From positions 133,166-197,165 of the forward strand of contig MNQK01000031.1 of NCBI GenBank assembly GCA_001915385.1: 64,000 bases of DNA. The letters run 5' to 3'. The DNA comes from Bacteroidales bacterium 52_46 (GTDB lineage: Bacteria > Bacteroidota > Bacteroidia > Bacteroidales > Muribaculaceae). Positions 37,640 through 60,113 of the stretch are shown piece after piece (position 1 is the first letter of the stretch; the number at the start of each line of letters is the position of its first letter). Under the pieces are notes generated by a model. That model did not search any database. It saw only the letters and a list, made by a program, of their open reading frames with translations, and was not told the DNA's origin. Position numbers and translations under genes: made by a program.

Positions 37640-37737
37640 AATCTTCGTTTTTATCAATGCTCGGATACATATAATATAACAAATTTGGAAGAAATTTTCC
37701 TGCACAGGAATCCAAGATAGGAGATCTGTACCATGGA

Positions 37738-38052
37738 CACACAGACCGTGCAATGCAGTTCAAATAAGACGTAATTCGTCAACGTAGAGCCGAAGGCTCG
37801 GGGGTGTTACTATCCCCGTCCGACGCGTAGCGGAGGGCGGGGTAAAAGGGAATACGCTGTGCGAGCCCACAGAGAGGGCGAGTGTGATGCTCTCTGATTC
37901 ATTATTCTACACAGTCGCCCGTTCCACGGGCTCACTTTATGAATGGTCGCGGTTGCCCCGCCCTCCGCTACGCGTCGGACGGGGATAGTAACACCCCCGA
38001 GCCTTCGGCTCTCAGCTATTTGAACCGCATTGCACAGAGCGTGCGTCCCTAT
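37738..38052. repeat. Large palindromic intergenic element (family C), copy A
   Basis: Termini ...CACAGACCGTGCAATGCAGTTCAAATAAG... and ...CTATTTGAACCGCATTGCACAGAGCGTGCGTCCCTA. Internal perfectly inverted ~56-bp arms GAGCCGAAGGCTCGGGGGTGTTACTATCCCCGTCCGACGCGTAGCGGAGGGCGGGG. Confidence 0.8.
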
Positions 38053-38249
38053 ATTTTGGGATTCTGCACCTTTCCTATATCTGAAATGCGCAGGCACTCC
38101 GTGGTATACGCGATACAAAAATATGCATTTTAAACAGAAGTTCCAAAAGATTAAACGGAGTAACGGGTCGCGTTTCACGACCTGTTACCCCGTTCGGGAT
38201 TGAAATGATTAAAATAACTCTTTTAAGAGGTTGTCTAAGAAGTATTTAT

Positions 38250-46402: not shown

Positions 46403-46448
46403 ATGCACGTATGGGGGGGTGCAAAACTGCTAAATTCAGGCCAACAAA

Positions 46449-46774
46449 GTAGGGACGCACGGTCTGTGCAATGCGGTTCAAATAAGGAGTAATTCGTCAA
46501 TGTAGAGCCGAAGGCTCGGCGGTGTTACTATCCCCGTCCGACGCGTAGCGGAGGGCGGGGTAAAAGGGAATATGCTGTGCGAGCCCACGTAGAGGGCGAG
46601 TGTGTGTGATGGCTTCAGATGTAGTATTCAACACATTCGCCCGTTCCCCGGGCTCACTTTATGAAAGGTCGCGGTTGCCCCGCCCTCCGCTACGCGTCGG
46701 ACGGGGATAGTAACACCTCCGAGCCTTCGGCTCTCAGTTATTTGAACCGCATTGCACGGTCTGTGCGTCCCTAC
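46449..46774. repeat. Large palindromic intergenic element (family C), copy B
   Basis: Its ends and arms are near-identical to copy A. The central loop is divergent. Confidence 0.8.
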
Positions 46775-46814
46775 TATTGGGGGTTCTGTAACATCCTCAT
46801 GGCATTATTCTTAT

Positions 46815-51365: not shown

Positions 51366-51551
51366 GCGTGGCAAAGCGCCAAAGGCGATGATTAACCGCG
51401 GTGACGATGAATGGAATATGGATTGATTATCGGTTAATTATCGGACGCACAGACCGTGCGTCCCTACACCGCCGGACATAGTTTTGTCGTTCTGCGACAC
51501 CCTCAGAGAAATATAAAATTTAACCTTGCAGCAGGACAGCTGCCGACAGAT

Positions 51552-57876: not shown

Positions 57877-59526
57877 ATGGCTACAAAACCTTTTGAATAC
57901 CAGGAGATGTTTCCCATGGGGAAAGATACCACCGAGTATTATCATCTGACTTCCGACTATGTCAGAACCGAGACTTTCAACGGTCGCGAAATGCTTGTCG
58001 TTGACCCCGAGGCGCTAACCGTGCTCGCACGCCAGGCCACACACGACAATGCTTTCATGCTGCGCCGCGAGCACAACGAGATGGTCGCAAAGATACTTCA
58101 CGACCCTGAAGCAAGCGCCAACGACAAGTTCGTAGCGCTTACGCTGCTCCGTAACGCCGAAGTTGCAGCCAAAGGCCAGCTCCCATTCTGCCAGGATACC
58201 GGCACAGCAATCATCATGGGCAAGAAAGGCCAGAACGTCTACACCGGCGGCGGCGATGAAGAGCGCCTGTCAAAAGGCGTTTACCTTACCTACACGCAGG
58301 ACAATCTCCGCTATTCGCAGAACGCACCCCTCACGATGTATGACGAGGTGAACACCGGTTGCAACCTTCCCGCCCAGATTGACCTTTATGCTGTAGACGG
58401 CAACGAATACAAATTCGTGTTCGTGGCAAAAGGCGGCGGTTCGGCCAACAAGACTTATCTCTATCAGGAGACAAAAGCCATCATCAACCCCAAGACACTT
58501 GTTCCGTTCCTCGTGGAGAAAATGAAGACACTCGGCACGGCTGCATGTCCTCCCTACCATATAGCGTTTGTTATCGGCGGCACATCGGCCGAGATGAACC
58601 TCGCCACAGTCAAAAAAGCATCAGTCAAATATTACGACAACCTTCCCACTCAGGGGAATGCCCTCGGCCACGCTTTCCGCGACGTCGAACTGGAGAAAGA
58701 ACTTCTCGAGGCATCGCGCAAAATCGGTCTCGGCGCGCAGTTCGGCGGCAAATACTTCGCCCACGACATACGCGTGATACGTCTGCCGCGCCACGGTGCA
58801 TCATGCCCCATCGGTATGGGCGTAAGCTGCTCGGCCGACCGTAACGTAAAGGCCAAAATCAACAAAGAAGGCCTTTGGATTGAGAAGCTCGACGCAAACC
58901 CAGGCGAACTCATCCCCGAAGATATGCGCAAAGCGGGCGAAGGCGACGTTGTGAAAATCGACCTCAACCGCCCTATGAGCGAAATACTCGCCGAACTGAC
59001 CAAATATCCCGTGTCGACGCGTCTGTCGCTCAACGGTACAATCATCGTAGGCCGCGATATCGCCCACGCCAAAATCAAAGAGCGTCTTGACAAAGGCGAA
59101 CCGATGCCCGAATACCTCAAGAACCACCCCATCTATTACGCAGGACCCGCCAAAACACCCGAAGGAATGCCTTCCGGTTCGTTCGGGCCGACCACTGCCG
59201 GACGTATGGACCCGTACGTCGACCAATTCCAGGCGGCAGGCGGTTCAATGGTAATGATAGCAAAAGGCAACCGCAGCAAGCAGGTGACCGACGCATGCAA
59301 GAAGCATGGCGGTTTCTACCTCGGCTCAATCGGAGGCCCCGCCGCAATCCTCGCACAGAACTCAATCAAGAAAGTCGAGTTGCTCGAATACCCCGAACTC
59401 GGCATGGAAGCTATCTGGAAAATAGAAGTCGAAGATTTCCCCGCTTTCATCCTTGTAGACGACAAAGGCAACGACTTCTTCACCGAAATCGCCGCCAAGT
59501 GCGCAGGCTGCCCCATCGCTAAATAA
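57877..59526 (+). CDS. Class I fumarate hydratase (Fe-S hydro-lyase)
   Basis: N-terminus [13 protein letters not shown]...YYHLTSDYV matches the FumA/FumB family. The start is taken at MATKPFEY. Confidence 0.9.
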
Positions 59527-59649
59527 GATACTCCACAGGCATATACCAAACGAAGCAGGGCTGACATACAGGAATGTCAGCCCTTGCTTTATTCAGGTTC
59601 CCATACAGCATGCAAGGGCGTTTCGCCATCGTGGTATTTGTGTAGAATA

Positions 59650-59797
59650 GTGTATCAGAGCGCATCACACACTCGCCCTCTCCGTGGGCTCGCACACGCG
59701 TATTCCCTTTTACCCCGCCCTCCGCTAACGCGTCGGACGGGGATAGTGACACCACCGAGCCTTCGGCTCTCCGCTATTAGAACCGCATTGCACAGAC
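59650..59797. repeat. Family C palindromic element, half copy (one arm, inverted), truncated by a MITE insertion
   Basis: Reverse complement of the copy A left arm. It ends with ...GCATTGCACAGACCGTGCGTCC. Confidence 0.75.
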
Positions 59798-59976
59798 CGT
59801 GCGTCCTACTAGTGGTCAATCTTTTTTCTACATAATTTAGAGCATTGAAAAGGCTTAAATTATTAAATCCTTAATCTAAAGTATTTTATGAACAAAACTC
59901 AGGATAAATAGTTAATAAAGCTTTAAGTCTGAATGACTATTTCACATGTATTATAATTAAAGATTGACCACTAGTA
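59798..59976. mobile_element. MITE-like element with 15-bp terminal inverted repeats (TACTAGTGGTCAATC) and a 9-bp target-site duplication (CGTGCGTCC)
   Basis: Perfect terminal inverted repeats flank a ~150-bp AT-rich core. The direct repeat CGTGCGTCC lies at 59789-59797 and 59977-59985. The insertion splits the conserved terminal motif CGTGCGTCCCTACA of repeat family C. Confidence 0.65.
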
Positions 59977-60037
59977 CGTGCGTCCCTACATCGTTGGCTA
60001 AAATTCAGCAGTTTTGCAACGCCTTTCATACAACCCG

Positions 60038-60113
60038 CAAACAAACAAACAAACAAACAAACAAACAAACAATCAATCAATCAATCAATCAAACAATCAA
60101 TCAATAAGTTTGT
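60038..60113. repeat. Tetranucleotide microsatellite (CAAA)9(CAAT)5CAAA(CAAT)3
   Basis: Read directly from the sequence. It lies about 230 bp upstream of the NlpC/P60 gene. Confidence 0.9.

Follow-up and report, generated by a model that had tools for sequence, protein, structure and literature searches.

Positions 59807 to 59976 of the window, by which we mean the whole 64,000-nucleotide stretch of Bacteroidales DNA analyzed here, very probably hold a genuine and recently mobile MITE that is specific for REP-like repeats and uses a transposase supplied in trans, no parent element having been found. The segment has the traits of a MITE: it is noncoding and 170 bp long, it ends in 18-nt terminal inverted repeats (TIRs), empty sites verify a target-site duplication of fixed length, and near-identical copies lie at unrelated loci. 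The targeting of REP arms is the main addition to the original prediction, which had read the segment as an element landed inside a repeat called family C.

The element and its genomic setting

The element lies in the spacer between the gene for a class I fumarate hydratase (ORF end at 59526) and the gene for an NlpC/P60 hydrolase (ORF listed from 60270), which is followed by ligA. The LigA protein encoded in the window exactly matches OKY84869.1, from the MAG "Bacteroidales bacterium 52_46," and the window corresponds to JGI contig Ga0245125_100069. A terminator-like hairpin (59557-59584) follows the fumarase gene. Because the element lies beyond this hairpin, and 285 bp or more separate it from the downstream NlpC/P60 gene, its insertion was presumably near-neutral for selection. 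The parts of the insertion are listed below, where L numbers designate the related loci that were retrieved for comparison.

59666-59806, + strand: left portion of the host "family C" unit (a GC-rich sequence of about 165 nt that contains internal hairpins), ending in the REP-like arm CGTGCGTCC; collinear with four paralogous units
59798-59806, no strand: left copy of the target-site duplication, CGTGCGTCC; 100% identity, and single in the empty sites of L006 and L009 and in the paralogous units
59807-59824, + strand: left TIR, TACTAGTGGTCAATCTTT; identical in all 170-bp copies except L021/L028, and in a 265-bp variant
59825-59958, + strand: AT-rich noncoding core, 134 bp, with stops in six frames, 24 to 27% GC, no Rfam match, and 97 to 99% identity among copies
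59959-59976, - strand: right TIR, the reverse complement of the left one (an 18-nt inverted-repeat match)
59977-59985, no strand: right copy of the target-site duplication, CGTGCGTCC; from the repeat search and the empty-site comparison
59986-59989, + strand: CTAC tag of the REP-like palindrome (GTAG on the other strand), abutted by the duplication; CTAC at eight and CTGC at one (L030) of the nine sites with a visible tag-side flank

The TIRs are perfect over 18 nt (100% complementary), longer than the 15 bp originally given for them, and the 9-bp direct repeats adjoin them on both sides. The repeat is exactly 9 bp long, as the next bases differ on either side. The interval first proposed for the insertion, 59798-59976, covered the left duplication and the element and missed the right duplication. 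By our own estimate, the chance expectation for a perfect 18-nt inverted repeat within 200 bp that is abutted by a 9-nt direct repeat is about 1e-9 in 64 kb. The TIR does not occur again in the window, even with up to 3 mismatches allowed. The core is far poorer in GC than the window as a whole (50.6%), and with all six reading frames of the 170-bp element interrupted by stop codons, it has no capacity to code for a transposase.

The same spacer contains a tetranucleotide microsatellite, (CAAA)n followed by (CAAT)n, at 60037-60107, about 160 to 230 bp upstream of the NlpC/P60 ORF. The length of this tract varies between strains, being much shorter in L003 and having other repeat numbers in L002 and L004; it could be slippage prone near a promoter region. 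Also, in L003 (2479-3000), an unrelated segment with a 6-bp gap has been swapped in just after the hairpin (alignment columns 74 to 90, about 59600 to 59616 of the window). Elsewhere in the window, a tmRNA gene at 14223-14622 on the - strand (RF00023, 130.9 bits) is the sole Rfam family found at the gathering threshold.

Filled and empty alleles in related strains

Strains were compared by aligning the spacers of contigs that encode an exactly identical NlpC/P60 protein. The L001 spacer is identical to that of the window and is filled. L002, L003, and L004 display a gap of exactly 179 columns, the sum of the 170-bp element and one 9-bp repeat. L006, a mouse-gut metagenome contig, and L009 are perfect empty sites (...gcacagacCGTGCGTCCctacatcgttggctaaaa): their flanks are identical to those of the window, and CGTGCGTCC occurs only once, with CTAC after it. 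The original prediction had claimed recent transposition with a 9-bp target-site duplication and had proposed looking for an empty site in a related strain; L006 and L009 are such sites, their single 9-mer confirms the duplication, and together with the exact 179-column gap, they bear out the claim.

The site is also empty in L002, L004, L005, and L010, where the target is mutated to CGTCAGTCCTTAC, and in L003, where it reads CGTGAGTCTATAC (position of window 59977-59989). All empty alleles other than L006 and L009 have substitutions in the 9-mer and tag, while every filled allele has the consensus target. Targets with such substitutions may have lost their attraction for the element. Overall, filled alleles (the window, L001, and L008) are in the minority relative to empty ones (L002-L006, L009, and L010). 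L010, the nearest relative of the window when 3 kb of flanking sequence is compared (28 differences in 2980), is among those without the element.

L008 carries the element (58-227) at the same site as the window but in inverted orientation, and its left duplication, CATGCGTCC, has one mismatch (8/9). The flank of L008 differs from that of the window by 1.8%. This allele could reflect an independent second insertion at a hot spot, or it could be an old insertion in which the segment between the TIRs was flipped before recombination reshuffled the flanks; a comparison of the flanking haplotypes favors neither. In 23 strain contigs, the remaining tagged REP arms known from the window are all unoccupied, and the activity of the element is therefore modest.

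These alleles bear on the idea that the conserved 170 bp are a functional RNA or a regulatory cassette (a terminator, promoter, or sRNA) maintained by selection. As single-stranded DNA, the element folds significantly better than its shuffles (z = -5.5), as might be expected of such a cassette, but the fold is essentially the pairing of the TIRs, and the element matches no Rfam family. Inspection by eye of both strands revealed no canonical Bacteroidetes -7 box (TAnnTTTG). Moreover, the element occurs in both orientations relative to neighboring genes, and most strains do without it at this locus. We consider selection for such a function very unlikely as the explanation for the conservation.

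The repeat into which the element has inserted is a GC-rich, multihairpin unit of about 165 nt that ends in a tagged REP arm, with copies at 46448-46775, 37700-38053, and 59666-59989. Its motif, CGTGCGTCCCTACA, is found 6 times in the window against an expectation of 0.5, and 0/100 shuffles reach 6. When the element and one 9-mer are removed, the site becomes collinear with 46448-46615 (reverse complement), 46605-46775, 37880-38053, and 37700-37900 (reverse complement), up to the end ...GCATTGCACAGACCGTGCGTCCCTAC. The joined flanks rebuild an intact REP, as evidenced by both the alignment of paralogues and the empty sites. The nesting of the element inside a family C repeat, which had been proposed from the outset, is upheld by this restoration of the host unit, and the point of entry can now be placed at its REP arm end. 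Because the 9-mer occurs once, not twice, in all four paralogous units and in the host-repeat consensus, the duplication does not belong to the family C consensus.

The host repeats are themselves variable. The two units at 46448-46775 form a 328-bp palindromic (inverted) dimer, and neither this dimer nor the host repeat matches an Rfam family. In L080, L090, and L092, the dimer is missing, and the rplT-DUF308 spacer in which it lies in the window is about 600 bp shorter. In L092, a spacer is also about 119 bp shorter around window position 51456, and no tagged REP end is found anywhere in the locus. Host repeats are thus present in some strains and absent from others, and they are therefore polymorphic themselves and possibly mobile in their own right.

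This variability is relevant to a reading in which the element is a REP/BIME-like mosaic module, spread by recombination or by a RAYT (a REP-associated HUH tyrosine transposase). The element is always found inside REP-like repeats that differ in presence between strains, which is what such a module would predict. Nevertheless, its TIR is unrelated to the REP sequence, and its core, at 24 to 27% GC, has a very different composition. The exact 9-bp duplication and the clean empty sites also count against this reading. Mobility of the HUH/RAYT type operates on hairpins instead of 18-bp TIRs and leaves the target unduplicated. Finally, a motif scan (HUH ... Y-x3-NP) of the window and related loci detected no RAYT-like ORF. 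Taken together, these points make a REP/BIME module a highly improbable account of the element.

Copies and target choice

Additional copies were sought with exact-TIR scans of sequence collections and with a script that was run over all fetched loci. Beyond the copies at the window locus, the 170-bp form was found in L021/L028, L023, L025, L029, and L030, and in L020, L022, and L024, where it is cut by contig or locus ends. A comparison of 1.5-kb flanks indicated that only the window and L008, and likewise L021 and L028, represent the same locus; the remaining sites have in common at most repeat modules of 40 to 120 bp. The 170-bp form therefore occupies nine distinct sites in gut-metagenome contigs, and its copies are 97 to 99% identical to one another. 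The host DNA of these copies resembles the window in composition (47 to 55% GC), and the family C unit is present in L023 too.

A 265-bp variant has the identical 18-bp TIR and an unrelated core. It occupies two sites, L018 (210-474) and a second that runs from L013 (7857, to 8000) through L012 (from 1, to 121). The two elements are one base apart in sequence and lie in opposite orientations, with 9-bp duplications of GGTACAGCC. Their host, the MAG CAZSHV01, is labeled "uncultured Bacteroides sp." and has 59 to 63% GC. That only the 18-bp ends are kept across two cores and two host lineages is as would be expected if the ends were binding sites for a transposase.

Wherever both junctions are available, the duplication matches at 9/9 (the window, which equals L001, as well as L023, L025, L029, L030, and L013/L012) or 8/9 (L008 and L018) positions, except in the degenerate copy of L021/L028. 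At this locus (L021, 2431-2600; L028, 2210-2379), TACAATTGG replaces TACTAGTGG at the tip of the left TIR, with an additional C in front of it. At the left junction, CGTCCCTACAATTGG of the right flank is thereby repeated, and the continuation of the target, CTACAATTGG, stands in place of TACTAGTGG. The altered tip looks like the product of gene conversion from the flanking target, and it has probably immobilized this copy.

Could each copy instead be the in-place remnant of a full-length IS that lost its interior, so that the short element itself never transposed? The 265-bp variant does resemble a deletion derivative, in that it has a promoter-like AT-rich stretch and a 32-amino-acid ORF, MHQYEVRMAMDLKRGMAWLNQIAGHKARKFKD, with its stop codon within the TIR; this ORF looks like a transposase remnant. 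However, a single 170-bp structure, with its internal junctions unchanged, recurs at nine unrelated sites (97 to 99% identity), and independent deletions would not be identical. In addition, no full-length copy was found in the scans and loci searched. An origin by repeated deletion in place is most improbable, and a short element that itself moved is the reading that we retain.

Preinsertion sites were rebuilt in a common orientation for 11 sites (nine of the 170-bp form and two of the 265-bp form). The duplicated 9-mer is CGTGCGTCC, GGTGCAGCC, GGTACAGCC, or GGTGAAGCC, all of which fit SGTNNNNCC (11/11 sites). It is followed by CTAC in 8/9 and by CTGC in 1/9 (L030) of the sites where the tag-side flank is visible, with L022 and L024 left out of this count. 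The 9-mer constitutes one arm of a short, GC-rich, GTAG/CTAC-tagged palindrome of the REP-like type, laid out as GTAGGG-NN-GCAC ... GTGC-NN-CCCTAC. For instance, the tagged palindrome at 51443-51467 of the window reads GGACGCAC-AGAC-CGTGCGTCC followed by CTAC, and that of L022, which carries GTAGGGACGCACAGACCGTGCGTCC, reads GTAGGGACGCAC-AGAC-CGTGCGTCC. In its GG-N5-CC appearance, the duplicated 9-mer is reminiscent of the symmetric consensus at which IS10 and IS231A insert.

The 64-kb window contains only about 5 to 7 tagged arms. Across both strands, the window offers only about five target positions of this kind (and 22 CCCTAC hexamers in all), and so the agreement at 11/11 sites is not due to chance. 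Landing in the repeat is not accidental: the element specifically targets this position within REP-like palindromes. Relative to the tag, both orientations are used (6 versus 4 among the 170-bp copies, including L008).

Such near-absolute targeting of a single REP position raises the question of whether an IS110-type (bridge-RNA) or other site-specific recombinase moves the element, as the targeting resembles that of ISPa11 and ISPpu9/10. Several described REP-targeting IS, these among them, belong to the IS110 family. IS110-type elements have no long TIRs, whereas the present element has perfect TIRs of 18 bp, and its 9-bp duplication differs from the 0 or 2 bp of ISPa11 and ISPpu9/10. Perfect TIRs, a 9-bp duplication, and the use of both orientations point to a symmetric transpososome, not a directional recombinase. 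Mobilization by a recombinase of this type is hardly credible, and a transposase that acts on the two TIRs is the explanation that we prefer.

Mobilization, known systems, and significance

As a MITE, the element would be a non-autonomous, cut-or-copy-and-paste element whose sole functional parts are its two identical 18-bp TIRs. These would be the sequences bound and cleaved by a transposase acting in trans, presumably a DDE-type enzyme. This enzyme would cut the target with a 9-bp stagger, with one cut at the boundary of arm and tag and the other at the boundary of loop and arm of the REP, and repair of the stagger would generate the duplication of CGTGCGTCC. Because the two ends are identical, insertion could occur in either orientation.

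The original prediction had proposed a search for other copies of the inverted repeat and for a cognate transposase with matching ends. Other copies were indeed found, with the 170-bp form occupying nine sites and the 265-bp variant two, whereas the transposase was not found in the window, in the related loci, or by exact-TIR scans of three collections. Within the window, the 40 long ORFs are housekeeping genes, and no transposase or integrase is among the best 25 families listed for the window ORFs by PHROGs and by NCBIfam. Neither a parent IS nor a transposase was detected in the window or in about 0.4 Mb of related loci. Several ORFs bracketed by inverted repeats were examined as transposase candidates and rejected, as they encode EngA, a sugar transferase, a SIS-domain protein, and a sigma factor. 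ORFs with the YREK pattern of IS4-family DDE transposases in the window and related loci were limited to a chance match in a TonB-dependent receptor.

Exact 18-mer TIR scans of 185,579 species-representative genomes, a metagenome collection, and IMG/VR returned only MITEs or single chance matches; the genome and metagenome collections are incomplete, in that neither scan returned the window's own copy. A 15-mer TIR scan of the viral collection likewise yielded chance matches and no parent. Loci with only MITEs or chance TIR matches were L011, L014-L017, L019, L026, L027, and L031-L071, of which L027 was checked and is free of ORFs. Among the fetched loci, no pair of TIRs 100 to 5000 bp apart, with up to 4 mismatches, bounds a longer, IS-like segment, and no related locus has the same REP arm interrupted by anything longer; the strain and viral loci added later were scanned for the TIR only.

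The 265-bp variant gave no further lead. Its peptides (MHQYEVRMAMDLKRGMAWLNQIAGHKARKFKD and, on the other strand, one ending in LLARVIFAGIIATQSLIPFGKAFS, both running to a stop) have no word-sharing homologue, Pfam family, or plasmid match, and their phage tblastn matches are at chance level only. A blastn search of plasmids with the 170-bp and 265-bp variants found chance AT-rich matches only, and a literature search did not find the TIR string.

REP-specific IS of Proteobacteria are the closest functional analogues of the element, and a 9-bp-duplicating MITE such as MITEAba12 is the closest structural one. IS1397 and ISKpn1 are among the IS that are specific for REPs. Tobes and Pareja (2006; PMC1525189) described a "type 1 association" between IS and REPs for ISPsy8, ISPa11, ISPpu9, ISPpu10, ISRm22, and ISRm19. 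As in these cases, the joined flanks of the present element rebuild the REP, all 11 of its 11 sites are on a REP-type arm, and REPs act as a hot spot or safe harbor (PMC1525189). The type 1 REP-IS are autonomous elements of Proteobacteria with duplications of 0, 2, 3, or 6 bp (PMC1525189), while the present element is a noncoding 170 bp from Bacteroidales with a 9-bp duplication that spans the whole stem arm. MITEAba12 of Acinetobacter (113 bp; PMC6382973) is similarly a small, non-autonomous TIR element that makes 9-bp duplications, has been active recently, and occurs as highly conserved copies. It prefers AT-rich targets and has a parent, ISAba12, with matching TIRs (PMC6382973), in contrast to the strict GC-rich REP arm and the parent not found for the element described here.

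Other families share single features with the element. The IS10 and IS50 subgroups of the IS4 family, tabulated in PMC2266710, have duplications of 8 to 9 bp and conserved ends (CT in IS10 and CW in IS50). The element is like them in the length of its duplication and in its short terminal repeats, but it starts with TA, and an IS4-family mobilizer of either subgroup was rejected on account of these ends. With its 9-bp duplication and TIRs, the element is unlike IS200/IS605-RAYT (HUH) elements and REPINs, which have hairpin ends and make no duplication. It is also unlike REP-targeting elements of the IS110 type, which duplicate 0 to 2 bp. The combination of a 5'-TA end, a 9-bp stagger, and the choice of a REP arm fits none of the IS families testable here.

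It is the host repeat, and not the element, that resembles GTAG-tagged REPs and REPINs (PMC3733652), occurring both singly and as inverted dimers and being polymorphic among strains. The host repeat has the traits of these sequences, being a short GC-rich palindrome with a GTAG/CTAC tag that is located between genes. In a 2013 survey (PMC3733652), GTAG repeats were reported for Proteobacteria, Cyanobacteria, Chloroflexi, and PVC, and not for Bacteroidetes; GTAG-tagged REPs and REPINs also feature in PMC3116915.

More speculatively, we propose that the 170-bp element and its 265-bp cousin might be driven by an undescribed transposase lineage of gut Bacteroidales with 5'-TA 18-bp ends, a 9-bp stagger, and near-absolute choice of the REP arm beside the tag, although we regard this as doubtful. 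If true, this would be the first REP-specific TIR transposon system to be described outside Proteobacteria, and it would provide a naturally sequence-specific "safe-harbor" integrase for Bacteroidales.

The element leaves the general understanding of MITE function unchanged; what makes it of interest is the strict targeting of REP arms in Bacteroidales together with the absence of a recognizable parent. It points to a transposase with very tight target choice, and such an enzyme could be of use to builders of genetic tools for Bacteroidales. The element also offers a clean, population-level case of recent transposition in uncultured gut Bacteroidales, and the filled, inverted, and empty alleles among strains with an identical NlpC/P60 protein make the site a useful strain marker. 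Finally, GTAG-tagged REP-like palindromes exist in the phylum of the Bacteroidales, where they act as a specific landing pad.
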